NCBI GenBank assembly: GCA_963823665.1
Contig: CAWGMQ010000007.1
Location: 768,001-832,000, forward strand
Reading direction: 5' to 3'
DNA: 64,000 nt
From: an uncultured Planctomycetota bacterium
GTDB taxonomy: Bacteria > Planctomycetota > Planctomycetia > Isosphaerales > Isosphaeraceae
Position numbers and translations under genes: made by a program. Numbering within the stretch: position 1 is the stretch's first letter; the number at the start of each line of letters is the position of its first letter. This document shows positions 208 through 43,000 of this stretch, one piece after another. The notes under the pieces were generated by a model, which saw only the letters and a list, made by a program, of their open reading frames with translations, had not been told where the DNA came from and made no database searches.

Positions 208-1340
208 GTGGCCAAACCGCAAGACGCCCCGCCGCCGTCATCCCCGGCTCCTTCCTCATCCGGAGACAACAAGCTCCGCCTGCATGCCGAGCAGGAGTTT
301 GCCGCCGAGCTCGCGGCACTCGCGGAAGTCGACAACAAACAGCGTCCCCCGCGCTGGAATCTCTCACCCTGGGCCGTCAAGACCTACATCCTGGGCGGCA
401 AGCTCGAGAGCGGCTTCGAGATCACGCCCAAGTACATCGGCAACGAGCGGCTGATCGAGATTGCGATTGCCACGCTCGCCACGGATCGAGCGCTCCTACT
501 CTTTGGCCTGCCGGGTACTGCCAAGAGCTGGGTCAGCGAACATCTTTCTGCGGCGATCTCGGGCACGTCTTCCCTGCTCATCCAGGGAACCGCGGGAACC
601 GACGAGTCCGCAATACGCTATGGGTGGAATTACGCCCGCCTGCTCGCTGAGGGGCCGTCGCGCAACGCACTCGTGGAAAGCCCGATGCTTCGCGCTATGG
701 AAACCGGCCGGATTTGCCGCGTCGAGGAGCTCACTCGCATCTCCGGCGAAGTTCAGGACGCGCTCATCACCATCCTTTCTGAGAAAACGCTCCCTGTCCC
801 CGAGCTGAACGTGGAGGTGCAAGCGGTCAAGGGATTCAACGTCATTGCGACCGCCAACAACCGCGATAAGGGCGTCAACGAGCTTTCGAGCGCACTCTTG
901 CGTCGGTTCAACACGGTGGTCTTGCCCGTGCCGGACTCGCTCGAAGACGAAGTGACGATCGTGAACCAGCGCAGCGCCCAGCTCGGCGCGCGCTCGAATT
1001 GCCCGCGGAAAAGCCCGCCCTCGAAGAGATTCGCCGCGTGGTCACGATTCTCCGCGAGCTGCGCAGCGGCGTCACCGAAGACGGCAAGACCAAGCTCAAA
1101 TCGCCCAGCGGCACGCTTTCGCCGGCGGAGGCCATCTCGGTGGTCACCGGCGGCATGGCCATCGCGGCCTTCTACGGCGACGGCCGCCTCCGCGCCGGCG
1201 ACATTATCTCGGGCCTGATCGGAGCGGTCGTCAAAGACCCCTTGCAAGATCAATTGATCTGGCAAGAATACGTGCAGACGGTGATCAAGGAGCGCGACAA
1301 CTGGAAAGACCTCTATCGCGCGACCCGTGATTTTTCCTGA
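208..1340 (+). CDS. MoxR-type AAA+ ATPase (YehL-like), one apparent frameshift near 985-1000
   Basis: Walker A GLPGTAKS, Walker B-like RVEELTR, FNVIATANNRDKGVNELSSALLRRF. The C-terminus continues in the 999..1340 frame (ELRSGVTEDGKTKLKSPSGTLS). Confidence 0.9.
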
Positions 1341-21069: not shown

Positions 21070-23343
21070 TCACTCATGCGTCACATGCGACCCGCCCGTG
21101 CGCTTCCCGTCGACATGCGCAGGATTTCCCTTATACGTCAAATGCGAGACCGACGAGACGTCGTATTCAAGCGACTCGCTCACGGCGACTTTCGCGTGCG
21201 ATGCGCCCGAAACGGTGATGTTCATCGTTTCGGTTTTGACCCCGTCGAGTTGAAGATGACTCGCACCGGACACCGAGACCTTGGCACGTTTGGCACTTCC
21301 GTCCAGATTCACGTGGCAGGCTCCCTCCGACTTCAGCGCCAGCTCGCTGGTTTCCAGCTTGCCGCGAAGCTTGCTCGCACCGGACATCGTGGCTGCAAAC
21401 GGAGACGTTGACCTTACGACGATATCCGCTGTCGAGGCTCCACTCAGATCGAGCTTGCCTTGCTTGAGAGGGAACTCGCTCAGCAGGAGGTGGCTCGCGC
21501 CGCTGGCCGTTACTTCGGCCTCTTGCGCTCCGCCCGTCAAGGTCAACGAGCTGGCGCCGCTTGTGTCGATCTTCGCTTTCACCGAGCTCAGCGCCCCGTC
21601 TAGCTTGGTCGCGCCCGAGAGATGAACCACCACGTCTTTCTCGGAATCGAATCCTTCAAGATGACCCTTGGCAGCTCCGGACAATTCAATTCGCGCGAGT
21701 GCAGGCAGCACGATCTCCGCCTCGGGCGATTTCTCGAGTTTGTAGCTCTGGTCTTTCTTCAGGCCGATCTTCAGCAAGTCTCCGTCTTTTTCCACTTCGA
21801 CATAGGGCAGGACGTTATCGTCGGCAGTCGTGGTGACTTTGAATGCCTTTCCCTTGGAGATCTTTGCGTGGAAGGTTGAGCCGATCTGCAACCGGTTGAA
21901 ACCCGTGATATCCCAGGTCTTGGTGGCCATCTTGCCCGAGCCTACGATGGTTTTCGAATCTGATGACTCATTGATCGTGACCCGCGCCTGGCCCGTACCC
22001 TGTCCTGCTCCGGCGCCCTGGCCATCGCCGAGGGCGGCGGGGAATATCGTCCGGATCGGCGTGAAGACCCCGGTCTTTCGCTCATAGGCAGCCGCGGCCA
22101 GCACACATGCCGAGATCGAGAGCACGGCGATCGCCATACGCCGGCGGGTGCGGCCGGCAGTCACCTTTGCCGTTTTTCTTGGCGCGGGTGCCATGCCCGC
22201 CAGTCCGCGCTGAACCGCCGCCAGGTTTTGTTCGAGCACCAGTGCAACCTCTCGGGCCGATCCGAAACGTGCCGCTGGGTCCTTGGCGTGCAGGCGCTCG
22301 ATGATCTCAGCCAGCCACACCGGCACATCGGGGTTGCTCTCGCGTACGGAGCGCGGCTCTTCGTCCGACACTCGCCGCAGGACGGCCGGCGTCGAGCTGG
22401 CTCGAAACGGGGCGTGACCCGTGCACATGAAGTAGATCACGCTGCCCAGGCTGAAGAGGTCCGATCGATGATCGACGGCCTCGCCGCGGGCTTGCTCGGG
22501 CGACATGTACTGAGGTGTTCCGGCGACGACGCCGCTCTGCGTGAGACTCGCGTCGTCAACCGCGCGTGCGAGTCCGAAATCGGTCAGCTTGACTCGCTCC
22601 ACGCCGTTTTCGAGCAGGATGTTCGAAGGCTTGACGTCGCGATGAACCAGTCCCTGCGCATGCGCCGAGGCCAGGCCCTGAGCCGTTTGGATGCCGACGC
22701 GCAGGATCGCCTTCAAATCCATCGGCCCGCCTCGATCGACCCGCTCTTGTAGCGATTGACCGGCGATATACGGCATGACGAGATAGGGCAAGTTCTTCCA
22801 AGAATCCACCGCGTGAATCGCCACGACGTTTTCGTGCACGACCGCGGCGGCCGCTCGCGCTTCGCGGGCGAAACGGCCTCGCGCAGCGGCACTGGTGGCA
22901 AGCTGTGGAGCCAGCACCTTGATCGCCACCGCGCGGCCGAGTGCCGCGTCAAACGCCTTGAGCACCACGCCGAAGCCGCCGTGGCCGAGAACCTCCGACA
23001 CCTCGTAGGCACCCAGCCGCCCCAGCGACCCGGGCTCGTCCGAAGTCGAGAGGAAGCCGAGGAGATCGTGCCCAGCGGGCCGCTCCGACCTTTCTGCCGA
23101 TTCGTACACTGCCGTTCCAGGCGCTGAGCAGCCGGGGCCGGCTTGATTGCCGAGCCGCGGAGTGAGCTGTCGCAGATCGGCCCAGAGCTCGCTTCCGGCG
23201 GCGAGCCGTTCCAGCATCCGCTGACAGTCCGAACACGATTCGAGGTGATCGCTGAACCGGGCTTGCTCGTGATCGGGAAGGTCGTCGTCAAGGAAAGACT
23301 TGAGACGTCCCGCATCACAACACTGGGATGTTCGTGCAACCAT
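21070..23343 (-). CDS. Membrane Ser/Thr kinase: zinc-finger-like N-terminus, kinase, TM, C-terminal GIN (DUF2807) beta-solenoid
   Basis: HLESCSDCQ; LGHGGFGVV, HRDVKPSN, DFGLAR, GTPQYMSPE; TM MAIAVLSISACVLAAAAY; GIN motifs (TADDNVLPYVEV, repeated LSGAS, HLTYKGNP). Confidence 0.9.
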   Translation of the reverse strand: MVARTSQCCDAGRLKSFLDDDLPDHEQARFSDHLESCSDCQRMLERLAAGSELWADLRQLTPRLGNQAGPGCSAPGTAVYESAERSERPAGHDLLGFLSTSDEPGSLGRLGAYEVSEVLGHGGFGVVLKAFDAALGRAVAIKVLAPQLATSAAARGRFAREARAAAAVVHENVVAIHAVDSWKNLPYLVMPYIAGQSLQERVDRGGPMDLKAILRVGIQTAQGLASAHAQGLVHRDVKPSNILLENGVERVKLTDFGLARAVDDASLTQSGVVAGTPQYMSPEQARGEAVDHRSDLFSLGSVIYFMCTGHAPFRASSTPAVLRRVSDEEPRSVRESNPDVPVWLAEIIERLHAKDPAARFGSAREVALVLEQNLAAVQRGLAGMAPAPRKTAKVTAGRTRRRMAIAVLSISACVLAAAAYERKTGVFTPIRTIFPAALGDGQGAGAGQGTGQARVTINESSDSKTIVGSGKMATKTWDITGFNRLQIGSTFHAKISKGKAFKVTTTADDNVLPYVEVEKDGDLLKIGLKKDQSYKLEKSPEAEIVLPALARIELSGAAKGHLEGFDSEKDVVVHLSGATKLDGALSSVKAKIDTSGASSLTLTGGAQEAEVTASGASHLLLSEFPLKQGKLDLSGASTADIVVRSTSPFAATMSGASKLRGKLETSELALKSEGACHVNLDGSAKRAKVSVSGASHLQLDGVKTETMNITVSGASHAKVAVSESLEYDVSSVSHLTYKGNPAHVDGKRTGGSHVTHE

Positions 23344-23347
23344 CAGA

Positions 23348-23968
23348 TCAGCTCCTGGTTTCAAAAGGTATTCCGGAGTCGTCGACTTGCTCGATCTCGC
23401 GACGAATCCGGGCAACGACCCGGCTCTTGTATTGATAAACTGTGCCCACGGTCATTCCGAGGTCCTGGGCGACGACCTTGGGCGGCGTGCCTTCCACGCT
23501 AGTCAGCCAGAACGCCTTCCACGCCGGCTCGGAGAACGACGGTCGCACACGCTCGGCCGCCCACACGAGCAGACCCCGTCGATATTCATCTTCGAAGAGC
23601 GCTGACTCTTCACAGCCAGGGTCGGGTTGCTCCTCGATCAGCTTCTGGATGTCGGTTTCGCCACTGCCTCGCGGATGCCTGCGCTGCGCGACCAGGAGGT
23701 TCACGATCAGGTTGCTCGCGATGCGGGAGAGCCACCCGCGAAACGACCCTCGGCTCCGGTCCGTATCGAATCGGTCAATCGCCCGGGCGACCGAGCGAAA
23801 GACGTCTTGAACGAGGTCCTGAGCGTCGGCTTCCTGCAGCCCTCGCCGTTTCGCAAGTCGATACGCGAGAGGACCATAGATCTCGGTGAACTCGCACCAC
23901 GCTTGCTCGTCATTGCGGTCGCGCAGGCGAACTAGCAAGCTCGGATGAGTCAAAGGTGCGTCGTTCAT
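23348..23968 (-). CDS. ECF sigma-70 factor, complete, directly upstream of the kinase
   Basis: THPSLLVRLRD..AWCEF, DAQDLVQDVF, GSFRGWLSRI, region-4 HTH VAQDLGMTVGTVYQYKSRV. Confidence 0.93.
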   Translation of the reverse strand: MNDAPLTHPSLLVRLRDRNDEQAWCEFTEIYGPLAYRLAKRRGLQEADAQDLVQDVFRSVARAIDRFDTDRSRGSFRGWLSRIASNLIVNLLVAQRRHPRGSGETDIQKLIEEQPDPGCEESALFEDEYRRGLLVWAAERVRPSFSEPAWKAFWLTSVEGTPPKVVAQDLGMTVGTVYQYKSRVVARIRREIEQVDDSGIPFETRS

Positions 23969-24035
23969 CCACTGATCTCCTCCCTCTCTATTCACAACCC
24001 GGCGGCGAAGATTTGAACGCGAACGCGAAGAATTC
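23522..24035. repeat. Direct repeat, left copy (ECF 5' three quarters plus upstream region)
   Basis: Collinear with 53012-53525 at a constant offset of 29,490 bp; about 22 mismatches in 448 coding bp by manual alignment. Confidence 0.95.
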
Positions 24036-24119
24036 TCGATTCGGCCATCTCGCCGTTCAGAAAATCCAGAGTGATGATTCGGAACGCAACGATCAGCGCG
24101 ATCGCCGCTCCGCAATTTC

Positions 24120-24658: not shown

Positions 24659-25031
24659 GTCCGCCTTAGTAATTCTTTCAACTTTTCACTCGCTCGCTCG
24701 AGCATCCAAGAATGGAATGGGACGGGAACTCCGTCCACGACTCGATCGGTTTCTCGCGATCAGCGTCACACGCGAGTTACCAGGGGCCACGACAACTTTC
24801 ACGCGGGCTTGAAAGAAAGCCGTCGACGTGATTGGCGCGGCATTCCGCAGATAAACCGAACCTTCGATTGCTCGGATCGCCGTCCGCCCCAAGCGGGGTT
24901 GTCACGGGTTCCGAGCCTGGAGAAGGTGCGCGCCAGCGGCGCCTCAGTCGCACCGCCAAGTATTCGCACATTGTTGACGGCTACCACAGAGGAGACCCGC
25001 CATGCGTGCCAGGCCCGAAGTTAGAAAGCCG

Positions 25032-28000
25032 ATGATTCACCGGAAAGTAGTCAAGACCTTAGCTCGCCGCCACGTCGCGCGCAGAACCCGGCGCCTGCTC
25101 TTTGAGCCGCTCGAAGACCGGACCTTGCTGGCGATCACAGCGACGATTCCACCCAGTAACGCCGCCCCGGTGTGGGCGGATGAGGGACCGAGCCCGATCA
25201 TCAACGGGGGCGTCACGGGCATGCCGCTCCAGTTGAATCCGGGCGCGGGGGCGGTCGTGGCGTTTGCAGTGAAGTCCGGCCCCGTCGTCGGGACGACAGT
25301 GGCATTCGCGGCCACCGCCAGTGGCGGGGTCTGGGAAACGGACGACCTGAATGCCACGACGATGGTCGACATCAATCAGGTGAATGACACCTCGTTGCTA
25401 CCCTCGCCACCCACTGCCAGCATCACGGGGGGCCCGATGGGAGGCGGGGCGGGCGCGACATTTCCGTATACCTACGTGGTGACCTACCTCGAGGCGGGGG
25501 GGCGCGAGAGCAACGCAAGCGCGCCCATCACGCTGGAGGGCAACGCGGCCGGCATGATCCAGATCAACGTCGGGCCGTTCGGTAACGGTAATGGCCTCCT
25601 CGGCGACAACATCTATCGGGCCGTTAGAAATGCCAATGGCACGACGACCTACTATCTCGTCGGGATGATCAACACCAACGGCGGAACTTTCGTCGACAAC
25701 ACCACTGTCAACACCCCCGTCGCCATCTCGACGGCTCACGGGGTATTTATTCCCCATGCTCGGCTTGCGCCTGAGCCGTCGCCGGAGTGGCAGCCGTTGA
25801 CCGATGAATTCCCCTCGCTCTCGATGGAATCGATCGCGATTGCCGCCGACAACCCCTACATCGCCTTCGCCGGCACCGGCCAGGCGAGCGCGTCGAACAC
25901 AGGCTCCACGGGCCAGGGCGTCATCATGATGACGGTCAATCCCGCCAATGCGGCGCTCAACACAGCCACCCTGCTCGGAGCCAACACCCTGGCGGGCCTC
26001 GACATCTCGGCCATCGTCGCGCTCCCGAACCACACCATCGTGGTCGCAACCGACGACCCGGACCAGGGCGGGGTCTTCGTGAGCAGCGACTACACGATGC
26101 CGAATGTGACGTTTTTCCGGATCCCCAGCAATCTGCTGCCGGCGGGCCCAGTCACGGACCTGGCCTACATCCCCGCAGGCGCCACCACGGGGGGGGCCCT
26201 GGTCCTCGCGGCCATCGCCGGCACATCCGGCGTCACCGGTAAAATCCTGTCGAACGCTGGTATTTACGTCCACACCGCCGCCAGTCTTGGCGTGGGCTCT
26301 TGGAACGTGACGACCAGCAACGTCCCCAAAGCCGGGCCTGGCTCGGGGAATTACAACTTTGCCAATGCGACCGATATCCACTTAAGTGTCTATCAGGGCG
26401 CGGCCACCAACACGGTCTACGCCGATACCGTCGAGCAGACAAGTTCTTCGAGTTACGCGGTCACGGAGGTGTTTCGGATCAGCAATGTTTTAAATCCCGC
26501 GAACACGGCATGGAGCCCGGTACTGGCCAACAACACCGCCGGAACGACGGTGCCGCTGGCCGCCGCCATCCCCGGCGGCATCAATCCCGGCGGACAGGGT
26601 GAGTTCAATTCACCGATCACCGCCGACCCGAACAACCCCGACGGCTTCTATATCGCGGGCGACCATATCAACAACGGCGTGTCCGCCTCTGTATTCAAGG
26701 TCACGATCAACGGTGGCCTCGCAACCTGGACTCCCGTCGTCGGCCCCAATGCACCCGGTCCCGGCCCAATCTCGGCTCCCCTCGTGATGCCGGGCACCGC
26801 CAACCCCTTTCCCGCCAACGGTGGGCTGGTGGCCGGTATGACCTACCAGTATGCCTACACGCTCGTCGACTCGAACGGAGTCGAGAGCGCGCTCAGCCCC
26901 TCCACGACGACGATGCCGCTCATGGTGGGTCAAGACCAGGTCACGATCACGATTCCGCTCCCGTTGCCCGCGGGATTCGCCAACGCGCGCGGCTTCAGAG
27001 TCTACCGCAATTTCCCGAATTCACTGGCTTACTACCTGGTCGGCGGTGGCTTGTTCGGAGGCGCGCCACCGCGGCGAACAATTTCTTCCCTGACACCCTG
27101 ACCGAGGCGCAGGTGAGGATGGTAAACAATCTTTCCAGGTCGTTGGTCAACACCGCGGGGACTTCGCCGCACGCGGATGCGCGCGCGATGGCTTTCCTGC
27201 CCGGAAACAACGGCACCTTGTTCGAGTCGGACGACGGCGGGCTCTACGAGTTAAACGGCTTGGGCGTGACCAGCGGAACGTCCTACTGGCAGTCGCTCGA
27301 CGGCAACCTCGGCGATGTCGAGACCTACTCGGTCGCCTATGACCCGCTCGCCAACGTCGCGATCGCGGGCAACCAGGACAACGGCTCGATCGTCCAGACA
27401 GCGCCCGGCTCGACCACGTGGACGCAGACCAATTCGGGAGACGGCGGAACCCAGGTCGTCGACGTCGTGAATCCCAATACGAACTCACAAGCCGTCTACC
27501 AAATCGCAGTGGCCAACAATTTCGGGATGTTGGTCGGCAACACCCTGGTATCTTCCATCAATATTTCGCGGGATAATGCCAATGGCACCCTGGGGAACAC
27601 CGCCCCGGTGATGCTTGCCGCTATGCCCGGCGGCGCCGCCCTGAGCGGGCTCGCCCCCAAAGATCAGAATGCGACGGGTTTTCAGCGCGTCCAGGTCGCA
27701 GCCAATGCAGTCAACGGCCAGCTGCTCTTCGGGCTCTACGGGGTTTACACCACCACGGGCGTCGGTACCCCCGCGGGCCCCGGTGCCGTCGTTTCGCAGA
27801 CCATCAATGCGCCGACTCTGCCGTCCAACGCCGACGCGGCGGGCCAGTCTCTTTTACTCGACGGGAACGGCGTCGCGAAATCCTCGGCACTGCTCGTGAC
27901 AGCCGTGACGTACGGCGGATTCTACATCACCTCTACTGCATACCTCCCCAACCCGAACGTCATCTACGCCGCTCGGTCCAACGTCATTTACGTTCGGACC

Positions 28001-31000
28001 GGCGCGGGTGGCTCGTTCAACTACTCGGCGGCGGTCCCGCTGAATGTGACGATCACTTCGATCGTGCTCGACCCCACGAACTGGAAGGTGGCCTACGCTG
28101 CCGGCGGCTCGAGCGTCTTCGCCACCGTCGACGCCGGCAAGCACTGGGCCGACATCACCGGGCAGCTCGCGCCGTTCAATTCCAAGCTGGATGCCGTCCA
28201 GATCATCAAGCTGGCCGGTCAGGATGTGCTCTTGGTCGGCGGAGCCGACGGCGTTTTCGTGACGTACAACCCGGTCGGGACCCCGAACGCCGACAATACG
28301 TACGCGACGCTGCCCAGCAGCTCGCGGGGCCTGGTCTGGACGGCGCTGAACGCCGGGCTGCCGCACGCCCAGGTCACCCAGATCAGCTACACGACGTCGA
28401 TGAGTATCAGGGTGAATGGCAACACTCTGACCAGAGGCGACGTGCTCTTGGTCAGCACCCTCGGCCGCGGGGTCTTTCAGATCAACAAGGCGTCGACCCA
28501 GTTCAACAAGACCAACACGCTGACCATCAGCGGGCCGCAGGCCAACTCCACTGTATTGATCGCGCCGGACGCGCTCAACTCGCAATTGATCGACGTCACG
28601 CTGACCCAGCTCGGCGTCCCCATCACCCAGGATTTCCCGATCCAGTCGATCAGCGGCATCAACGCCTTTAACCTTGGCCCCGGCACGATCCTGACAGTCG
28701 ACACCGGCGTGGCGCTGCTCAACCCCGGCATCACGTTTAACGCCCAGGACGGCGCTAGTCTGGCGTTCGCGTCGCCGGGCAATGCCACGCTTCAGAAGTA
28801 CAGCACGACGGGCAACACGCGCACGCTGGTCATCAGCGGGCCGAACGGCCCGTTGACCGTCACTTACATCGCCGGCAGTCTGGCTCCGCAGAACCTGCCC
28901 AACCAACCGGTTCTCAAGGCGGTTGGCCAGGGACTCAAGAATTTGTTCGCTTCGTCGGTCGCCGGGGCGCTCGATCAGGCGGACGTCCCGGGCCTCCCGA
29001 TCTCGCTAGGCGATGTGGTCGACGGGGTCGAGAACGTCGCGGCCCTGAGCGACCCCGATGCGGACCCCGACGCGGGCGGCTCGGCCGGCGGCACGGCGGC
29101 CGACAATGGCTCGGGCGGCCCGGGGATCTTTGAAAGGCTCTTCCAGGAAGACACCGGCGGCTTCGACGTCACGACGATCGGCGGCCCGACGATTCCCGAC
29201 TATCCCACGCTCGTGCATGATTTGGTCGACCTGAGCGATACACCCAACCCCAACCTGGTCTCATACACGCTCGATTCCTCGGGCGACCCCCAGTTCAACG
29301 TCACGATCAACAAGACGTTGGACGGTACGGCCAACCTCAACCTCGAGGCCTTGGGCGGCACGATCTCGCTCACCGGCGATGTCGACATCAGCATGATGGT
29401 GCACGTTCACCTGGTCTTCGGCATCGACTCAAACGGCTTCTACGTTGACACGGCCGCCGTGGTCAACACTCTTGGGCAGACCGTGCCCATGCTCAGCGTC
29501 GACAACATCCAGCTCGACGCCGACCCAAACCTGACCGCGTCCGGCGATTTCGGGCTCTTCGACATCAGCGCCACCAACATCTCGCTGACCGTCGACCCGG
29601 CGATCGGGGCATCCGTGACGCTGCCGCCCGAGTCGCCGGACGCGCTCACCGGCGAGACAACCAACCTGCTGCGCCCGCAAGATTTCGCCGCGATGGCCGA
29701 GTACGCCACGACCACGCTCATCTCGGCGCCCGGACAAGCGATCGCGATCTCGGCCACGATCAACGTCGACAGCGGGCTGCTCAGCTCGCTGATCCCCAGC
29801 TCGCTACAGGACCTGGACTTGACATTCACCTGGAACGACGCGAGCAAACCGACCAGCGTGGCCATCTCGGGCCCCGGTTATGACAGGCTGAACACCGTGA
29901 TCACCGAGTCCGAAAAGGACATCGTCATGGGCTTGCAGCAGCTCACGGCGCTGGGAAACCAGATCGACGCCTCGTCGGTCATGGCGGTGCAAATTCCAGT
30001 GATCGACCGGTCGCTCGGCAGCTTCGTTCAGCTCGGCAACCTTTTCGGCAACAGCCTTTACCAGCCGGTGCAGACCTACTTCGCCACGCTGCCGACGTTG
30101 CCTGACGGCACCCGCGAGCTCCCAACGGTTTCCGGCTTTGTCGGGGCGCTCATCGGCGCTTCGGCGCCGAGCGGCGATCTGAGTTTGTCGCTGGCCCCGG
30201 GCCTGAGCCTCACGGTGCAAGGTGGGGCGCTCTTGCTCAACTATGACTTCACCGCCACCCGGATCGATCCCATCGCGCTCGACCTCGGCCTGGGGGGCGA
30301 GTCGCCGCTGTCATTGAGCGCCAACCTCGCGGTGGACCTCCAGACCCAGTTCACTTTCGACGCGTCGATCGGCGTCGACCTGGGCGCACTCGCGAGCGCC
30401 ATCGTGAACAACACGACCGCAAACCTGGGGAACGCCTTCTTCGTCCAGCTCGCAACCCCGCCGACGATCAGCGCGAGTCTTCTCGACTCTGGTCAGGGGC
30501 TGACTGTAGCCGCGACGATCGGCCCGCTCAACGTCACGGGCCAGGTGCTGGGCCTGCTCTCCAACCCCGCCGACCCCACGAGCGATCGTCTGCCGCTCTT
30601 GCAGGCGGCAGTGAGCATCGGCCTGGCGGCCGACAGCAACGGACGGACCACGCTCAGCACGATCATGAATCTGCTCAAGACCAACCCCTTGCAACTGATC
30701 ACCACCCCGCAGTTCTCAGGCTCACTCGGCCTCGACATTCTCATCACTCCCTCGTTGATGACAAGTCGGGGCGCGTACAGCTTTACCCCCGCCGGCCAGC
30801 CCGGGCCCGAGCTGATCATCTCAACCCCGAACATCTTCTCCGGGGAGCTGCCAACGATCGACCCCGAGAACTTCGGCACGCTGCTCAACTTCAAGAACGT
30901 CTCCGCCGCGGCCCTGCTCGTGGCGCTTCAGCAGTTCTCCTCATACCTGGGCGAGTTCGCCAGCTCCCCCGCCTTCAACACCACGATCCCGTTCACCCAG

Positions 31001-34000
31001 GGGACGACTCTGGGGAGCTTGGTCAACGTTGCCGCCACCTACGCCAACCAGTTGGCCGGGCTCACTGCTCCCTCCGGCGGCACGGATTTCAACAGCATTG
31101 GCGGGCTCCAGAGCGCCAATGCGGCCAACACGGCCGCCGCCAACACCCCGATCTCTTTCAACTACGTGCCGAACTTCCAGTCGACCGGGTACCCTGCGCT
31201 CACGATGACGCTCAATCTCCAGCAGTCCTTCGGCGGCACGTTCAGCGGACAGATCGTTGGCGACAGCTTGAACCCGGTGGTCGACGACTCGACGCTGCTC
31301 TCCGACTTGAACGGCGGCCAGGGCGTCCAGTTCGCCATGGACCCCGTAAACGGGGTCGGACCTGGCACCAACGGCCCAGGGCCCGACCTGAGCATCGAGC
31401 TCTCCGACGGGACGATTCTTCCCATCACGTTCGCCCCGAGCAAGGGTGAAACCCTGGGCGACGTCATCTCCCAGATCAACGACGCCCCGGGGAACCGCGA
31501 CCAGCTCGTGGCCGCGATCAACCCCGACCAGGACGGCCTGATGCTGACCGACATGACGCTCGGAACCAACCTGTTCAACGTGATCGGCCAGCAGGGCTCA
31601 AACGCGGCGGCCAACCTGGGCATCGTCGGCATCGCGTTCCGCAACCCGACGCTCGACCCGACGACGCCCGTGTTACACCTGAACAACGGGGCCGGCGTCT
31701 CGTTCTCGACCACCGGCGGCGCCGATCTCATGGTGACGCTGTCGAACGGAGTCGTCTTCCCGATCACATTCTCGAACCCCGTGACCGTTGCCGACTTGAT
31801 CAATCAGGTCGCAAGCGCCAGGGACAGCCAGGGCCAGCCCAATAACGGCAGGCTAGCGCTGGGGATCAACTCCACTCGCACCGGCTTGGTGCTGTACGAC
31901 GGCACGACCGGCAACGGCACCCTCTCAGTCGCGGCCGTCCCCGGCTCGCTGGCGGCCGTCGGGTTGGGCCTGATCTCGACCAGCACCGCTCAGGTCGGGC
32001 CCGCCATCCCCCCCACGCCGATCACCACCAGCACTCTGCTCTCGCAGTTGGGCGGCGGCCAGGGCGTCAACTTCTCGACCACGGGCGCGCCCGACCTCAC
32101 CGTGACGTTCGCCGACAACAGCTCGCTCGACATCAGCTTGAGCGCCGCCTTGACCGTGGGCGACGTCATCAACCAGATCAATAGCGCTGCGATGCTCACG
32201 CCGACCACCCCCATCTCGCAACTCAACGACGGCCGGGGCGTCGCGTTACCAAGCGGGACCGACCTCACCATCAACTTCGCCGACGGCAGCTCGCTCCCGA
32301 TCGCGATCACCAGTACCACCTCCCTGACACTTGGCGGACTCATCAACCAGATGAACGACGACGCCGGCGGCAAGATCACTGCGGCGCTCGCCGGCAATGC
32401 CCTGGTCCTCACCGCCGCGCAGTCGTTCTCGGTGGTCGCCTCGCAGACGGCCACAGACCTGGGTATTACCGGCTCGAGCACCGTGAACGTTCCCGCCGGC
32501 ACCGGGTATACCTTGAACGGCAAGAACATCCAGACCACTCTGACGGCGGCGCTCAACTCGGCTGGGAACGCCCTGGTGCTCACTTCCACGCAGCCGTTCT
32601 CCGTGGTGTCTGAGGGCGGGGGCACGACCGCCGCCAACCTGGGCATAGCGGGCGCCAGTATAGGGAACACCCTGACCGGCAAGAACATCAACCCGGCGGT
32701 GCTGAACGGTCAGAACCTGAACGCGCTCGTGCTCGTGCTGGACGGGCAGAACGTCAACCGGATTGCCGACCTGACCACCCCGCTGTCGGACCTGGATGGA
32801 GGTGCCGGCGTCTCGTTCCAGGGCGACACGGGCAACGACCTTCAGATTCAGGGCGGCGATGGCACAACCGTGATCAACGTCGGCCTGGGCTCGGCCACCA
32901 CGGTCGGCGACGTGATCAATCTGATCAACGCCGCCGCAAAGCAGGTCGCGGGAGCCAACCCGCCCAAGATCGTGGCCAGCCTGGACACGACCGGGCACCT
33001 GGTCCTGACCGACACGAGCGGCACCAAGTTTCCGTTCACCGTACAGTCGCTGAACGGCTCGAGCGCCGCTGACGACCTCGGGATCGACGAAGCCCCGATC
33101 TCGGCGAGCCTCGACCTCAATTTCAATCCGGGCGGCCTGGCGTCGCTGGCGATTACCAATAGTAACGTCTTCGTCCAGGCAAACGTGAGCGCAAGCTTCA
33201 CCCTGGGGATCCTGCTGCGTCCCTTCAGCCAGGCCACGGCGCTATCGCCCGATACGTTGCTATCCACCCTCCAGTCCGGCGAGGGCATCCAGTTCGCCCC
33301 GGGCGGAAAGCCCGACATCAATGTGACGCTGCACAATGGCACCAGCGTGGACGTGGTCTTGAGCGGCTGCACCACGATCGGCGGCGTGCTCGCCCAGTTG
33401 AACGCCGCGGCGCCGAAAAACTTCATCGCGACCATCAGCTCCGACGGCCTCGGAATCGTCCTGACCGACACGACGACCGGCCCTTCGGCCTTCACCGTCA
33501 CGGCCCTCAACTCGTCCACGGCGGGCGCCGAACTGGGGCTGCTGGGCACCGGCGACGGCACCGGGACGATCCAGCGAACCGACTCAGACAGCGTTTCCTT
33601 CGGCGACAACATCTTCGTCCAGACCAACACTCCGCTCACGGCAAAGATCACTCTCGGAGCGTCCCTGAGTGCCATTGCCTCACTCGGGTTCTTCACCGTC
33701 CAGGTGAATGGCGGCACGGCCGTGGCCAGCGCAACCGCGAGCTTCGGCCTGGGCAACCTTGAGGGCACGCCTCAATCGGGCTACTCCACCTTGAGCGACC
33801 TGACGACCGCGCTCGGGGGGAACGTCGGTCTGTCGGTCATCGGGGCCAACCCCGGCCCGGCCAATGGGAGCACCGGGATCAACTTTGGGACCAGCACCTT
33901 CGGGCTCCAGCTCGGCTCCGGGCCCGTGTACACGATCCCGATCCTGAACACGGCCGTGCCCAACCCCAAGACCCTCGCCGACTTGATCACGAACTTGAAC

Positions 34001-37000
34001 GCCTCGCTGAGTGCCGTCAACGATTCGAGCGGGGTGTCCCTGGGCACTCAGGTGCGGGCCCTGGCCAGCGGGACGAGCGTCGCGTTCACGACTCTGGGAG
34101 GGCTCGCCCAGACGCTGACCATCCAGAACGCCCAGGTCCTGGGGTTCAACCAGGACGGCTCCGCGACGTCGGCGTACGTGATCCGGCCATCCGTGAACCT
34201 CACCGCCGACGTGAACTTGCCGATCTCGGCTGGGAACACCTTCAGCGGCGTGAGCACCACCAGCACAAGCAAGATCGAGTTCCACACCCGCCTGGCGGCA
34301 TCCCCTTCGACCTTGACCCCAGCATCCTGGCGGCGGCCTTCACCAACGGCAACAACTACACCATCGTTCTCCCCCCCAGCTCCAGAATCTCACCGGGTTC
34401 AACTTCACAACATTCGTCAATGCGCTCAGTCTGGGCCTCAACTTCCTTACCGATACGGTGGCCGGCGCCACCAACTCCGGCAGCACGAGCCTCGCGTTCC
34501 TCAACCAAAATCTGCCGCTGGTGAACGTGAGCCTCAAGGACATTCTGGGCTACGCCACCTCCTTCAGCAACTTCCTGGCCCGGCTCGTGAACGACCCGTC
34601 CTCGAGCCTCCAGGCCCTCGCCAATCAGATCGCCGGCCTGCTGGACGACAACTCGGTGACCGGCACCACGCTGGCCCCGGCAAACGGCGTCCTCTCGAGC
34701 GCGGCCCACTTCCAGGTCGTGCTCAACGGCGGCACCGGAGTACAGGTCACCGTGCCGCCGGACCCGAGCAATACGAGCGTGGCCGGCCTGGTGAACGACA
34801 TCAATACAGCCCTCGCGACCGCCGGGTTGGGGGGCTCGGTCGTGGCGACTTCAAGCGGCGGCTACATCACCTTGACCACGACCGGCCCCAACCCGGCATC
34901 CTCGATCGTGATCCAAGGCATTGCCTCAGGCGACCCCGCGTCCACCCAGTTGGGGTTCTCCAACACGATCGGCCTGGGGATTGTCACCTCGCTGACTGCC
35001 GCCAGCCCGGCCGCGCTCCTGACCAGTGCGGCGAACTTCCAGCTCGTCTTGAACGGTGGGACGGCGGTCCCCGTCACCGTGCCGGTTAACCCGAACTCGA
35101 AGAACCTGGCAGGCCTGGTCGCCGACTTGAATGCAGCGCTCCTGACCGCGGGGTTAGGTAGCGCGGTCGTGGCTTCTGCCAGCGGCGCCTACATCACCTT
35201 GACGGCGGCGGGCCCGGCCCCGGCTTCCTCGATCATGGTCCAAGGCATTGGTGCCGGAGCGGCCAACCTGGGGTTCACGAACGGTCAGACCTCAGGCGAG
35301 GCCCTGCGGCTCGACCTCGATTACGAGATCGCCAAATACAGCGGCATGTTCAACCCCGCGCTCAACATCCCGGGAAGCGATTCCTTGGCGGCGAGCGCCT
35401 CGACGACGCTCGAGCTGTCGGCCTGGGCGACCTTCCAGCTTTCCCTGGGAATCTCCTTGACCGGCAACGACAGTTTCACGCCATTCCTCTATGACTTTAA
35501 CCCGGCGACCGGGCAGGGGACCGGGCTCATTCTGGACGCGATGGCCTCGGCGAACCCGCTCGATGCCAAAGCCGACCTGGGCCCACTTTCGGTGTCCGTG
35601 ACAAACGGCTTCGCCGTGATCAATAGCGACGGCAAGAACGACTCGACGGCCCCTGCGCAGCTTGTGATCGGGCTCCAGTCTCCGGCCACCGGCACCCCGC
35701 CCTCCAACCTCCCCGGCCGCCATACCCTGACCGACCCGATACTGCCCGATCTCGGGGTCGTGCAGGCGACCGCGTTTGTCGGCGCCGACCTGCCGATCTA
35801 TTACGCGATCGGTAATGGCACGCCCAAGGAGATCTACGACCTCCGGCTCACGGCCAATCTGACCCAGCCCTTGAGCTCCCTCGAATTCACCAACGGCCTG
35901 CCGGGCGGCGGTTCGCTAGAGGACGCAATCAATAACGCGCTCAATGGCGCTTCTGTCAGTGATCTGCTGAGAGGCTTATCGGCCGGGGTCGACGCCGTCT
36001 TCGGGCCGCTGTTCAACGGCATCGATGGCCAGGTCTTGGGCAGCAACCTCCCGCTGATCGGCTCAGGGATCGCCACGGCGGCGAGCTTCCTGGGAAAGTT
36101 GGAGAGCAGCCTGGTCACCGCGCTCAACACCGCGGCGGACACGCTGGATCAGATCGAGACGCAGATCTACAACATTTTCGGCCCCGGCCCCTTTGGAGGC
36201 CCCGCGGGGCTCAACTGGCTACAGCCGATTCCGGGCAATACCAAGACCGGCCCTGCCCATTACATCGTCGACCAAGCGTCCTTGAGCGGCGGCGTCCAGT
36301 TCTACATCCACCTGAAGAACGCCAGCCAGCTCACCCTGCCGCTGGCCGCTGGCCTGGGCATCCCCGGGCTCGGGCTCAACCTTGCCGGCAATGCCAATCT
36401 GAACCTCGGCTGGGACTTTCAGCTCGGCTTCGGGCTGAATAAAACAGACGGATTCTACATCAACTCGTCGCAGTACAATGCCACGACCAACCCCTACCCG
36501 ACGAGCTTCAACATCTCGACCGACGTGACGCTCCCTGGGCTGGCGGCCACCGGGACCCTGGGCTACCTCCAGATCAAGGCAGCCGACGACGATAAGCAGC
36601 CGACCAATTTCCAGGGCGCGTTCGCGATCACTCTGACCGACCCGGGCGAAAGCGGGGTGGTCGACCAGCACTTGACGTTTTCAAAGATCGCCGCCGCGGG
36701 CTTCTCGAACGTGGTCAACGTGGGGTTCACTGCCAATGCTGCGGTCAACCTCGATCTGTCAACCAACTTCGTCGACGCGTCTGGCAATCCCGACTCGGGC
36801 TTGCCCTCGCTCAGCACGATCTTCCGGCTCGACTGGCCGTTCAGCGCCACCACAATGGCCGGGATCTCGACCTCGGTGCCATCGATCACGTTCGACCAGG
36901 TCCAGATCAACCTCGGTTCATTCCTCAACGAGTTCGCGCGGCCGATCCTCACCGACGCCCAGCAGGTTTTGGCCCCGATCCAGCCGGTGATCAACGTGCT

Positions 37001-40000
37001 GATGAAGCCGATCCCGGCGCTCTCTGAGCTCGCCGGCCATGACGTTACCCTGGCTACGCTGGCCAGCCAGTTCGGTAATAACAACACCGCCAACTTCATC
37101 AACGCCGTCGTCAGCCTGAACAACCTCATCAACAGCTTGCCCGCCCCCGGCAGCGATATGGGGATCATGATCGACCTGGGCTCGTTCACCGTCAGCGGCT
37201 CGGCGGCCAAGGACCCGACCCAGGCAAACAAGATGACGCCCCAGCCCCTCTCGGCGGCGGCGCTCGCGGCGATCCAGGCGAAAATGAATCAAGAGGTCTC
37301 GAGCGCGGTCCCAGGTTTCTCAAGCATTGTCAACCAAAGCGCCACGACGACGGGAGGCGGCTTCGAGTTTCCGATCCTCAAGAATCCGCTCCAAGCCTTC
37401 CAGCTTCTCCTGGGCAACGACGACGGCGCCACCCCGCTGTCGCTCTTCCAGTGGAACCTGCCGACGCTCACCCTGAACCTGAGCTACACCCAGACCTTCC
37501 GCGTCCCCTCGCTGCCGGTGCTGGCCGCCCAGCTCTCAGGCCAGGTGGGCGCGCAGTTCTCGTTCGCCTTCGGCTTCGACACCGAGAGGCTTTCCGAGTA
37601 CCGCTCCAACCCCGGGGGCGGGATCATCCAGATCCTGGACGGGTTCTACGTCGACGACCCGCCGACGGCCAACCAGATCGTCCTGACGGCCGGGGTTGCC
37701 GCCACGGCGTTGCTCGACCTCTACTGGATCTCCGGCGGGGTAACCGGCGGGCTGTACGCCACCATCAACTTCCACCTGGCTAACGACAGCGACGACCCCC
37801 ACCTCCGCTTCAGCACGATCGCGAGCGAGCTCTTTACCAACCCGCTCTCGATTTTTGACGTCAGCGGCGACCTGACGGCGAGGCTGTCTGCATTCGTCCA
37901 GATCTATTACGTCTTCAGCAGTTCCCGCTGGGATTTCAACATCGCCAGCGCCACCCTGCTGTCATTCAACACCAATCCCAACGCCGGCCTGGCGCGCGAC
38001 GTCACGAGCTTGAGCGTCTCGCCCACTCCGACCACGTATGGACAGCCCGAGACGCTGACTGCAACCGTCAGCCCGACCTCGAGCGCCTCGAACGCACCGG
38101 TGCCCCAGGGCACGGTCCAGTTCGTCGACATGACGACCCATACCACCCTGGGCACCGCGGGCGTCGGGACGAATGGAGTGGCCATGCTCCCCGTCCCGTT
38201 TTTGAATCCCGGCAACCACGTGATCCAGGCGAGCTATACGCCCACGAACGCGTATCGAGCCAGCCAGACGACGCTGACCCAGGTCATCACGGCCGCACCG
38301 ACGACAACGACCGTGGGCGCGACTCCGGCCGCGCCGGTGAGCGGCCAGGCCGTGAGCTTCACGGCCACCGTGTCGGCGGGGGCCGGGCCTCCCCCGACCG
38401 GTTCGGTCGACTTCATGGACACGACGACCGGCACCGACCTCGGGTCGGTCAATCTGGTCAACGGCACCGCGAGCCTGCCCCCGATATCCACTCTCGGAAT
38501 CGGCTCGCACCAGATCACCGCCACGTATTCCAGTAGTGACGTCACCCGGTTCCAGAACAGCAGCACGGCCCAGCCGCTTGCGGTGACGATTATCGCCGCC
38601 AAGACCACGACGACACTGGCCCCCGGCTCGCCCAACCCATCGGTGTACGGCCAACCCTTGGTCGTCCAGGTGCGTGCGGCCGCGCCGGGCGTCGGGGTCC
38701 CGACCGGGGTGGTTGCCTTTACGACCTCGACCGGAGCCAGCCTGGGGTCGGCCGACCTGGTGAACGGCCTGGCGACCATGCCGATCACCGCGCTGGCGGT
38801 GGGCTCTTACCAGATCACGGCCAGCTACCAGGGCGACGGCAATTTCGCCTTGAGCTCGACGGCCCAGCCCATAGCGCAGGTTGTCCAGGCCGCATCGACC
38901 AGCACGTCGGTTTCCGCATCCGCCACCACAGAGGTGACCGGCAACGCGATTACCTTCACGGCGGTTGTCATGGTGATGTCGCCGAGCCAGGCCATGCCGG
39001 CCGGCACCGTGCAGTTCATGGATAACGGCACCGCCTTGGGCACCCCGCAGCCGATCGACCAGACCGGCACCGCGACCTATACGACTGGGGCGCTCGCCGT
39101 CGGCACTCACACGATCACTGCCGTCTATACCGACATGTTCGGCAACTTCTCGACCAGCACCGGAACGCTCGGCAATCTTCAGATCATCACCCCGATCGCG
39201 ACCAGCGTCACCTTCGCGACGACCTCACCGGTGAAGTTCGGCTTTTCGACCACGCTCACCGCCACCCTCGCGTACCAGCCGCTGATCGCCACGGCGCCTG
39301 TGGGGGCGATTGACTTCTTCGACACGACGACCAACACCGATCTCGGCTCGGCCGTGCCGGTCAATGGGGTGGCCACGCTGAACTACACAGTGGCTCTGGA
39401 GCCCGGTCCCCACGCGATCGTGGCCATGTTCGCCGGCGATTCAAGGTACCTGCCGAGCGGAAGCGCCGCCACGACCCTGAACGTCCGCAGCCTGACCGAG
39501 GTCACCTGGACCCAGGACATTTCGACCGACCCGAGCGAGGTCAGTCTGAGAGAGGCGATCACTTATGCGGACAGCAATCCCGGCCAAACGATCACCTTCC
39601 TGCCGTCGCTGGCGGGCCAGGCCATCACCCTGACGATGGGTCCTTTGCCCGATCTGACCCAGAATGTCGTCATTGATGGCCTGGGCGCTTCTCTACTCAC
39701 GGTTAACGAGGGGGGGTCGGGATCGGGTTTCTTCGTCGATGCCGGAGTGACCGCGGCCATCAGCGCGCTGACCATCACGGGCGGTAACACCTTGATGGGT
39801 GGCGGCATCTATAACGCCGGGACGCTCACCGTCACCGACTGCGCGATCACGAGCAATATGGCGAACTGGGGCGCGGGGATCGCCAACTTCGGAACCCTGG
39901 ACGTCGAGCACAGCACGTTCTCTGGCAACACGGCCTACGGATACAACGGCACGGATGGTCAGTCCGCCGGCGGTGGTGGCGGCGGCGGGGCGGCACTGGG

Positions 40001-43000
40001 CGGCGGCCTGTTCAACAGCGGCACGGCGACGCTGGTTGACAGCACGATTTCCGGCAACACCGCGCGAGGGGGAAACGGCGGGAATTCCGCATACCCCTAC
40101 GGAATATTCAACGGCGGCGGCGGCCCTGGCGGGACCGCCGGTAGCGGCTCCACGGCGTTTAACGGCGCGGCGGGCAGCTTTGGTGGTGGTGGCGCGGGGG
40201 GCGGAGCCTCATCTTTGACGGGGGCACCCGGCGGCGCCGGCGGGTTCGGCGCCGGCGGCGGCGGGGGTGGTGGCAGGACCTCCGGCAACTCCGGTGGCAG
40301 CGGCGGGGCCGGTGGTTACGACGGCGGCGCCGGCGGAAACGCCATCTTCTCGGGTGGCGGCGGTGGCGGCGGCGGGGCCGGGATCGGCGCCGGCGTGTTC
40401 AACAACGGCGGCACGATCACCATCACCGCCAGCACCATCGCCTACAACTCGTCCTTGGCGGGCGCCGCGGGGAACCACCGCGCGGCCGCCGGAGAAGGCC
40501 AGGCCGGCGGTGTCTTCTCTCTGGGCGGGACCGTACGGCTCGACAGCACCATCATTGCCAGCAACAGCGCGTCTACCCTCGATCCCGATGTCGCGGGCAC
40601 ATTCTCAAGCGCGGGCTACAACCTCGTCGGCAACACCGCCGGCGGCAGCGGGTTTGTGTCGACCGACCTCCTGAACATGAATCCGATGCTGGGGCCGTTG
40701 CAGTCAAACGGCGGACAGACCCAGACGATCGCACTGCTCGCCGGGAGTCCGGCACTGGGCGCAGGCGACGACTCCGACGGCGTCCTCTCCGACCAGCGCG
40801 GCGCCCAGCGCGGCTCGGCGGGCGTCAGTGCCGGCACAAACTCCGACATCGGCGCGTACCAGGCCAGCTCGTCGTACCTCGTCACGACCACCGATGACAC
40901 GATGGACGACGGCAGCCTCCGGGCGGCGATCGCCTGGGCCAACACGAGCACGAACTTCGTTCGGACTTTCGACATCGACAACTTCATCCGGTTCGATACC
41001 GGCGGCGCCTTCGCCACTCCTCAGACAATCGATCTCACAACGATCGGCGACACGACGGTCGGGCCGACGGCCCTCGCGATCACCGGGTACGTCGAGATCG
41101 ACGGTCCGGTGCTCTCTGGCGGCGGCGTGACGCTCTCGCCGGCCGCCTCTGGCCCGGACATGCGGCTGTTCTACGTGGCGCCCGGCGGCGACCTGACGCT
41201 AAGCGACCTGACGCTTGAGGGGGGCGTGGCGGAGGGGTTTGCCGGCGGGACCGGTAGTGGCGCCGGCGGCGCTGGTGGCGGCGGGGGCGGCGCCGCCGGG
41301 ATGGGTGGAGCAATCTTCAACCGCGGCATCGTCAGCATTCTCGACAGCACCTTGACCGGCAACCTGGCCCAGGGCGGCGCCGGCGGAAACGGCTCGAACG
41401 GCTCTCTCGGCGGTGGTGGCGGCGGGTTGGATGGGCCCAGCGGAGCCGGCAATGTCGGCGGCCCAGGCGGCGGAGGGAATGGTGGATTCTCCCCCACGGC
41501 CGGCGCGTTCGGCGGCGGTGGCGGTGGCGGCGGGTCCAGCGGCACGACCGGCGCGAGCGGCGGGTTCGGCGGTGGTGGTGGTGACTTCGGCATCCGACTC
41601 GCGAACGGCGGCACGGGCGGCTATGGCGCGGGCTACGGCGGCACCGGCCACGAAACCCTGGGTGCCGGCGGCGGCGGTGGTGCCGGCCTGGGCGGCGCTC
41701 TCTTCAACGATGGCGGCAACGTCTTGATCATCAACAGCACCTTGGCCGGAAACACCGCCGCCGGAGGAGCCGGCGGGACGTCTCCGAGCACCGGCTTGGG
41801 CCCCGGCGCACCCGGCGGCAACGGCCGTGGCGTGGGCGGCGCCGTCTTCGATCGCGGCGGACAGATCATCGTCATTAACTCCACGCTTGCCGGCAACACG
41901 GCGAGCTCCGCGGCGCGCTCTTCATCCTCGGCGACGGTACCTCGGGCAACGGCACGGCCACGCTGCAATTGACCAACACGATCCTCGCGGGAACTCAGGG
42001 GTCGCGAAGCGACTTCGAGTCCGGAACAACCAGCGGCGGCTCGATCGTCTTCAGCGGAAGCAATGATCTGATCCAAACGAACAGCTCCCCAGACGGCTTC
42101 CCGCCGTCTTCGACCATCATCACCGGCCAGGATCCGATGCTCGGGCCGCTGGCCTATAACGGCGGGGCGACGGACACCATGGCGCTGCTCCCAGGCAGCC
42201 CGGCCCTGGACGCGGCCTCAAACATTGCCGCGCCGGCGGCCGACCAGCGCGGCGCCCAGCGCGGGCCGGCCGCTCAGGGCGCCGGTCCGAATGCCGATAT
42301 CGGGGCATTCGAAGACACGTCCTCCTACCTGGTGACGAGCACTGACGACAGCATGAGCGACGGCACGCTCCGCGCCGCCGTGGCCTGGGCCAACGAAAGC
42401 GTGAACCCGCTGCTATCTGTCGCGACAGCCAACGTCGTACGGTTCGACACCTCGGGCGCCTTCGCCGCGGGCGGAGTCATCGATTTGTCGACCGTCGGCG
42501 ACACGACGGTTGGTCCGACGGCGCTTCTGATCACAGGTGACGTCGAGATCGATGGGCCGGTGCCCTCCAGTGGCGGCCTCACGCTTTCGCCGGCCGCTTC
42601 TGCGCCCTTGATGCGGCTGTTCTACGTCGCGCCCGACGCGATCCTTACCCTCCAGGATCTGACGCTTGAGGGGGGCGTGGCGCAGGGCTTTGTGGGCGCG
42701 GCCGGCGAGGGCGCCGGCGGCGGCGCGGCCGGGCTGGGCGGGGCCGTGTTCAACCGCGGGACCCTGACGCTCGCTGACAGCACGCTCACGGGCAATCAGG
42801 CGATTGGCGGCAGCGGCGGGGCTGGTGGCGGCGGTGGAGTCGGCGGTGGTGGTGGCGGCCTGGACGGGGCCGGCGGCACGCCCGCCGCGGGTGCCGGCGG
42901 TGGCGGGGCCGGCGGCAACGAAGTCGCGGGCAATGCCGGTGGCTTCGGCGGCGGCGGCGGCGGCGGTGGCTTTAATGGCAGTTTCGGCTTGTACGGCGGC

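Follow-up and report, generated by a model that had tools for sequence, protein, structure and literature searches.

Nesting of FliD-D3-like domains and stacked closing strands in a giant surface-type protein gene of a planctomycete

Domains inserted into other domains have been described in several protein systems. In the cyanobacterial RNA polymerase beta' subunit, the Si3 insertion contains the discontinuous SBHM 2-5 and is 150 Å long in the crystal structure (PMC10895346), and its nest of SBHM/hybrid motifs is presented as a six-level recursion (PMC13114784). The flagellin of Geovibrio thiophilus (PDB 9AU6) has a D5 domain that is a duplicate inserted within D4 (PMC11532411). The contractile tail sheath is built from 'Russian doll' domains inserted one in another (PMC6088184), and in the RTX adhesins domains bud sideways from a giant surface fibre via an interrupted host domain (PMC12077191). 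The domains of FliD, FlgL and FlgK, to which the locus studied here is related, have been described as a five-stranded beta-grasp (PMC1949818). Here we analyze a segment (31247-33097) of the window, which is the whole 64,000-nucleotide stretch of DNA under study, that encodes five domain bodies and exactly five closing strands which do not follow each other in tandem order.

The reading frame that holds the segment, 27113-35089, is the central part of a broken giant gene (Table 1). An intact homologue (P0002, 4565 aa) aligns over all three host reading frames, which are therefore one gene with two frameshifts, both outside the nest. The N-terminus of the host is matched weakly by PF07595 (17.1 bits against a cut-off of 25.5) and carries a LEPR-type motif (LLFEPLEDRTLLA), while Big_3_5 repeats (206 bits, in the next reading frame) and a choice-of-anchor Q domain are found downstream. 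Judged from these sequence features, the host is probably a planctomycete-type secreted surface protein. In the reading frames of 25002-53010, neither FliD_N/FliD_C nor the helical D0/D1 domains of flagellin were detected by Pfam scans up to an E-value of 0.1 or by NCBIfam, in contrast to P0006 and P0007, where FliD_N/FliD_C or flagellin helical domains are clearly detected by the Pfam scan. The domain was thus borrowed, and the host is not a flagellar protein.

The forward strand at 25002-53010 contains five long reading frames that overlap or abut, the first three being the single frameshifted gene by homology. The other two (41969-49384 and 49366-53010) carry Big_3_5, choice-of-anchor Q and NHL repeats and may continue the giant gene to a total of about 9,300 aa. 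Upstream on the reverse strand (21070-24115), divergent from the giant gene, lie an ECF sigma factor and then a Ser/Thr kinase. A second type of Flagellin_IN-like insert, which lacks the LNGG segment, is seen on the forward strand around 33860-34170 and 34650-35300; one precedes the frameshift and two are in the reading frame starting at 34458, and this pair may be nested or tandem.

The elements of the segment are arranged in the order S0-R1-R2-R3a-[R4-c4]-R3b-c1-c2-c3-R5, and a complete single unit, R6, follows in another loop. The scaffold picks up again after R5 at PISASLDLNF, which, together with the host strand before S0, may represent one interrupted host strand. S0 is kept in P0001-P0003, P0005, P0008, P0009, P0128 and P0130, and the preferred reading is that it has been displaced from a circularly permuted R5. 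Every motif listed in a first-pass annotation of this DNA was found at its position in the frame 27113-35089. The absence of a closing strand from repeats 1, 2 and 5, the presence of GQIVGDSLN before repeat 1 and the stacking of three strands, all described there, were also seen, and the statement that the region is unlike normal tandem repeats holds. Separately, R1 contains an 11-residue Gly/Pro-rich loop insert (31325-31360, forward strand) that occurs elsewhere only in P0001 among the aligned relatives.

Table 1 Elements of the nested segment and of its host gene in the window.
Element	Position	Strand	Remarks
Giant surface-type protein gene	25002..41972	+	Frameshifts near 27050 and 34290-34370 give reading frames 25002-27101, 27113-35089 and 34458-41972
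Host scaffold strand ALTMTLNLQQSFGGTFS	31196..31246	+	Leads into the insertion; conserved before S0 in homologues
S0, closing-type strand GQIVGDSLN ahead of R1	31247..31273	+	Profile score 8.7, rank 4
R1 body, open	31274..31645	+	LGI at 31616; ends LGIVGIAFRN without closing strand; R2 starts directly
R2 body, open	31646..32014	+	LGL at 31964, without closing strand; R3 starts directly
R3a, initial half of R3, up to the helix end	32015..32191	+	Cut after VINQINSAA (32191) by R4
R4, complete unit	32192..32533	+	Closing strand c4 TLNGKNIQ at 32510-32533; inserted after the R3 helix
R3b and closing strand c1	32534..32692	+	c1 TLTGKNIN at 32669-32692
c2, second stacked closing strand VLNGQNLN	32699..32722	+	Conserved; probably belongs to R2
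Hydrophobic lead (ALVL) and c3 VLDGQNVN	32723..32758	+	c3 at 32735-32758; probably belongs to R1
R5 body, open	32759..33097	+	Ends LGIDEAP without strand; basal, and circularly permuted if S0 completes R5
R6, single complete unit	33233..33592	+	Other scaffold loop; closes with GTIQRTDSD at 33563

The repeated domain belongs to a flagellar family. PF07196 (Flagellin_IN) matches the segment at 30.1 bits (cut-off 22.7, E 5.5e-7) in three stretches, the best of them in R5; against the whole 2658-aa reading frame the score is 20.6 bits, under the cut-off. In both AlphaFold models each body consists of a hairpin, a helix, three strands and a short helix. The structure search returned FliD D3, FlgK and the outer domains of Vibrio flagellin with Z 7.0-8.0 and rmsd of 2.6-3.5 Å over 83-99 aligned residues; these Z-scores are middling, yet the top rows are almost all flagellar. 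The R5 model matches FliD D3, FlgK and the Vibrio flagellin outer domain at Z 7-8, and the unit corresponds to FliD D3 residues ~112-224. Insert domains of tail sheaths are weak fold matches to the unit (Z 4-6.4). A Foldseek search with the 647-aa model gave nothing at an E-value of 0.001 or better, its best rows being flagellar, a sequence search of the PDB with R6 gave no significant match, and the ESM Atlas returned only unnamed or Flagellin_IN clusters. To its FliD-D3/FlgK-type beta-grasp-like core the unit adds a T.L..LN.G.GV segment at the N-terminus and a single closing strand, and the open bodies retain the core residues seen in the other bodies. Its relatives occur as arrays in FliD- and FlgL-like proteins and as inserts in other giant proteins.

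The closing strands are distinguished clearly from their surroundings by a nine-position profile made from 258 distinct windows at 303 tandem junctions of non-nest proteins (mostly FliD/FlgL), each window being chosen by a Gly located 10-12 residues ahead of the next unit. The top five windows of the 647-aa segment are c1 (17.0), c2 (9.6), c3 (8.9), S0 (8.7) and c4 (6.7), and the sixth-best reaches only 3.9. With the same profile no strand was found after R1, R2 and R5, where the best windows in the following 30 aa score -7.2, -0.1 and -6.1, respectively. When the score of the weakest of the three stacked strands was set as the threshold, none of 2000 shuffled segments contained three such strands inside 35 aa. 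Across sequences that are 61-71% identical, S0, c2 and c3 conserve the Gly as well as the hydrophobic residues at positions 105 and 110. The c3 strand scores 2.6-8.1 in homologues (2.6 in P0002, 5.3 in P0003) and ranks lower than sixth in P0128 and P0004.

Covariation revealed to which body a closing strand belongs. A mean-field coupling analysis of 860 units out of 1275 profile matches (effective number 744) gave the pairs 69-106, 68-110, 42-110, 80-105, 98-108 and 100-105, by which the closing strand is linked with strand 4, with the beginning of the helix and with the residues immediately after the LG motif. Among 433 adjacent tandem pairs, 68-110, 42-110, 80-105, 98-108 and 66-109 reached z 4.5-4.8 when the strand was taken with the body before it, and no more than 1.7 when it was taken with the body after it. 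No coupling pattern between the strand and the next body was present in these 433 pairs (best z 3.3), and the couplings 69-106 and 67-108 were not reproduced in this smaller set. The closing strand is therefore part of its own preceding unit. The couplings 98-108, 98-105 and 100-105 place the start points of R2 and R3 at the turn of the exit hairpin, and 6-111 and 4-108 bring the strand's C-terminal end near the N-terminal end of the unit.

Homologues provided a second view of the arrangement. The same order of elements is found in P0001, P0002 (= L002), P0003, P0128 and the fragment P0131, all on other contigs, so the nest is not an assembly artefact. R3[R4] is present in P0001 and in P0131; in P0002, P0003 and P0128 both R4 and c4 are missing, R3a is joined to R3b and the three stacked strands are kept. 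In P0004, R3 is duplicated together with c1, followed by c2 and c3. This gain or loss of R4 with c4 and the duplication of R3 with c1 assign c4 to R4 and c1 to R3. At the DNA level R4 is 75% identical to R3a (152 nt) and 79% to R3b (131 nt), the best local scores for both halves, which identifies R4 as a self-insertion. Bodies equal strands in 6/6 assessable nests (5/5 in the window, P0001 and P0005+P0004; 4/4 in P0002, P0003 and P0128), as counted by eye with profile scores, with R5 of P0128 cut short and P0005+P0004 treated as one gene in two pieces because their contigs are equally long. The first-pass annotation had expected the number of stacked closing strands to equal that of open repeats in homologues; this is borne out for R4/c4 and R3/c1, and the number of R1/R2-type open repeats is constant in all homologues.

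The site of R6 is more variable. P0208 has one unit with one strand there, P0268 two complete units in tandem, and P0226 one open and one complete unit plus a second strand that scores weakly (3.6). At an R6-type site in L004 (1190-1960) two bodies come with one strand and a frameshift lies between them; this goes against the counting rule and is either a counter-example or an assembly error. As a separate observation, an unrelated small beta domain apparently splits R2 ahead of its helix, over the protein break between the end of P0005 and the start of P0004. The nest was found in 2/121 genomes of the order (its own and G032), and three more have single or double units at another site. Among 400 further genomes of the phylum, the full-length nest was found only in its own genome, with single-unit matches in 12, and a homologue search among shorter proteins found nothing. 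The protein P0136, named as from the cyanobacterium Gloeothece verrucosa, has the same scaffold with LNGG-type units, which indicates that the module is not limited to planctomycetes.

Two AlphaFold models were obtained, that of the window's nest from alignment A6 (12 sequences of ~21 nest relatives) and that of the L002 nest from alignment A7 (15 of ~21). P0004 (register shift), P0131, P0133, P0138, P0199 and P0213 were left out of both alignments, and P0009, P0010, P0134 and P0142 additionally of A6. Deep alignments with FliD arrays (A3) or single units were rejected because MAFFT misassigned FliD strands to linkers or split units, and misplaced fragments led to the removal of A4 and A5. The window model has a mean pLDDT of 64 and a pTM of 0.33, with S0, c4, c2 and c3 below 50 and c1 around 66 with a strand at 492-494; the L002 model has a mean pLDDT of 72 and a pTM of 0.39, with S0 and 339-372 (c1 to c3) below 50 and c2 predicted as a helix. 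The bodies fold at pLDDT 65-90 without a placed strand (in the window model, the R1 core at ~65-83 and R2 at 65-86). R3a and R3b (with c1) form one domain in the window model, as indicated by the aligned ranges 286..500, 292..500 and 282..491 with 77-104 residues, and R4 (333..432) matches FliD D3 independently. In both models the R1 exit and c3 are strands by DSSP, c3 with low confidence; S0 is not a strand, and the R5 exit has at most one bridge residue. The strand pattern of the R1 exit and c3 would fit pairing of c3 with R1 in the register of the couplings, and equally well a hairpin of c3 with itself. The first-pass annotation had expected reverse-order pairing of the late strands in such models. 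The aligned ranges show R3[R4]; for c2-R2, c3-R1 and S0-R5, whose strands have pLDDT below 50, the models neither contradict the pairing nor bear it out.

We favour, with modest confidence, a five-level nest, S0[R1[R2[R3[R4 c4]c1]c2]c3]R5, that would form a side arm off a scaffold strand of the giant protein. R4 lies inside R3 and c1 belongs to R3, as the homologues and the model ranges demonstrate; these parts of the scheme 1[2[3[4]]] first proposed for the repeats therefore stand, and its reverse-order pairings, here c2-R2, c3-R1 and S0-R5, appear to be the best reading of the remaining strands. As the covariation shows, the closing strand and the strand that follows the LG motif make up a hairpin, and the closing strand puts two hydrophobic residues into the core. 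If R2 and R3 were inserted at the turn of this exit hairpin, one strand per domain would be left for the return of the chain, and these strands would be stacked in reverse. R4 is a copy of R3, as its DNA indicates, and sits in R3's own post-helix loop. R5 with S0 would be a circularly permuted unit cut at the hairpin turn, which may bring the two ends of the whole insert next to each other within the host strand. A plausible history starts from S0[R1 c3]R5, to which R2 and then R3 may have been added at hairpin turns, and finally R4. The arm is likely to be a passive spacer or an adhesive element projecting from the fibre, because flagellar caps, junctions and filaments have exposed outer domains of the same fold.

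Coupling energies were also used to compare the pairings, with a cross-validated accuracy of 1079 and 986 of 1181 pairs that is inflated by orthologous unit positions. The five-level nest came first of six in only 2/8 runs (1/4 with all couplings and 1/4 with contacts only). A shallower arrangement with closed permuted units, [S0 R1][R2[R3[R4]c1]c2][c3 R5], scored below it in 3/3 complete nests with all couplings and in 2/3 with contacts only, and came first in 1/8 runs and tied first in another. Here S0 would complete R1 and c3 would complete R5 via short loops, giving three arms at one hub, only one strand swap away from the five-level nest. Such an arrangement seems unlikely to us, even though several features agree with it. 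The G-to-T spacing is 11 residues in both S0-R1 and c3-R5, the closeness of the strand C-end to the unit N-end (6-111, 4-108) makes a closed permutation look possible, and the pair of R1 V69 and S0 T106 in P0005, P0008, P0009 and P0130 fits too. However, tandem arrays have an equal junction length (10-12) with the strand uncoupled from the next body, S0 is not a strand in either model, four chains would have to converge at one hub, and no isolated strand-first single unit is established, four 'cAB' segments of a noisy parse aside. Two residue preferences were counted for the five-level nest, namely that G at column 98 of R1 disfavours D/N at 108 of S0 and that M/L at 69 of R1 favours D/N at 106 of c3.

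In another alternative, the strands are crossed (c2-R1, c3-R2) or complement a neighbouring molecule, which would generate an element that is knot-like or polymerises. Being homologous, the strands could change places, the score of the crossed order R1:c2/R2:c3 is close to that of the five-level nest, and R1:c2/R2:c3/R5:S0 came first in 3/8 runs; but c2 and c3 are too similar for the coupling test to order them. The gaps of two residues between c1 and c2 and of four between c2 and c3 would rather fit a chain that steps back domain by domain, and no sign of an oligomer appeared in any analysis run, so that we hold this alternative to be highly improbable. It is also very unlikely, in our view, that R1, R2 and R5 are complete on their own, with c2, c3 and S0 as relics, linkers or a motif of their own and only R3[R4] nested. 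The bodies do fold well without c2, c3 and S0 in the models, the solved FliD D3 matches the body alone and shows no such strand over the aligned range, an open unit in L004 lacks its strand, and c3 drifts from the profile in homologues. Against this, the counts of bodies and strands balance in 6/6 nests, S0, c2 and c3 retain the Gly and the hydrophobic residues 105 and 110 (61-71% identity), and the closing strand is coupled to the core residues 42, 68 and 80, which the open bodies keep as well.

Simpler forms of nesting exist in flagellar proteins. An automatic census of A/B/c grammar over 299 sequences was noisy, mis-split R1 of the window and was used as a lead only. It is common in FliD-like proteins for one unit to be split ahead of its helix by another, complete unit ('AA' in 32/299, with examples checked), and three stacked strands were called only in the nest family (5/299 sequences, of which two are the protein of the window itself). 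The 'BA' pattern in 193/299 sequences reflects mostly missed degenerate strands and was rejected. FlgL-like proteins have a strand, a complete unit and an open unit, which is a two-level version of the nest layout; the coupling test supported it in 6, 3, 6 and 5 of 8 cases, varying with register and mode. In L017, L025, L038, P0113, P0082, P0158 and other FlgL-like proteins a strand is followed by a complete, an open and a complete unit, and these are candidates for holding a circularly permuted unit. Two FliD-like proteins of 1550-1685 aa (L018:4343-7150 and L023:780-3210) resemble an independent deep nest, with a pair of open units, one unit that a complete unit divides after its helix, and then several strand-like motifs; the stacked strands seen there by eye score only 2-4 and were not counted as evidence.

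A broader picture, on which our judgement is evenly balanced, is that of a five-deep flagellar-derived arm with one short strand per level and a permuted base, which would be locked only from the tip inward. It would include at least four insertion points of the domain (before the helix, after the helix, at the exit-hairpin turn and at the strand-body junction), independent arms in FliD, FlgL and giant surface proteins, and a bracket grammar usable for branched protein fibres. If the five-level nest is true, it would rank with the deepest nests built from one repeat family and would be very clean, with one strand per level and legible from sequence. It would then provide a test case for nested folding during N-to-C secretion, in which four domains await their strands in reverse order, would show how a giant surface protein gains side arms with its backbone unchanged, and would name tolerant insertion sites of the FliD-D3 fold. 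It would also be a warning that repeat finding and AlphaFold with shallow alignments misread such nested regions.

In the literature search, which left most subscription journals outside, no account of a nest of the FliD-D3-like domain was found. R3[R4] is a case of a domain split by a whole member of the same family, according to the homologues, the DNA and the model. Proteins with PF07196 share the LNGG-type unit with the nest, there as arrays in FliD- and FlgL-like proteins that are mostly tandem or two-level, whereas the nest is located in a non-flagellar giant and belongs to a subfamily that adds the N-terminal segment and the closing strand. The other systems differ in further respects. 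In the RTX adhesins the split domains are Ig-like hosts with unrelated ligand-binding guests, while host and guest are of one family in the nest (PMC12077191), and the tail sheath nests domains of differing folds rather than copies of one repeat (PMC6088184). The Geovibrio D4/D5 pair is like R4 in R3 in being a duplicate of an outer domain in its own loop, but it has two levels only, and D4 is related to FliD D2 (a beta-sandwich) whereas the nest unit matches FliD D3 (PMC11532411). Si3 is like the nest in that copies of one small domain are mutually inserted and the chain doubles back into a long arm, although it has another fold and is part of a cytoplasmic enzyme, in contrast to a FliD-D3-like fold in a probably extracellular giant, with one short return strand per open domain. 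The recursion of Si3 is already deeper, so no new principle is involved, and the nesting grammar itself is not new, as Si3, the tail sheaths and the Geovibrio flagellin nest too. What is new here is the domain family, the closure by one strand that leads to stacked strands and, if S0 completes R5, the permuted basal unit.
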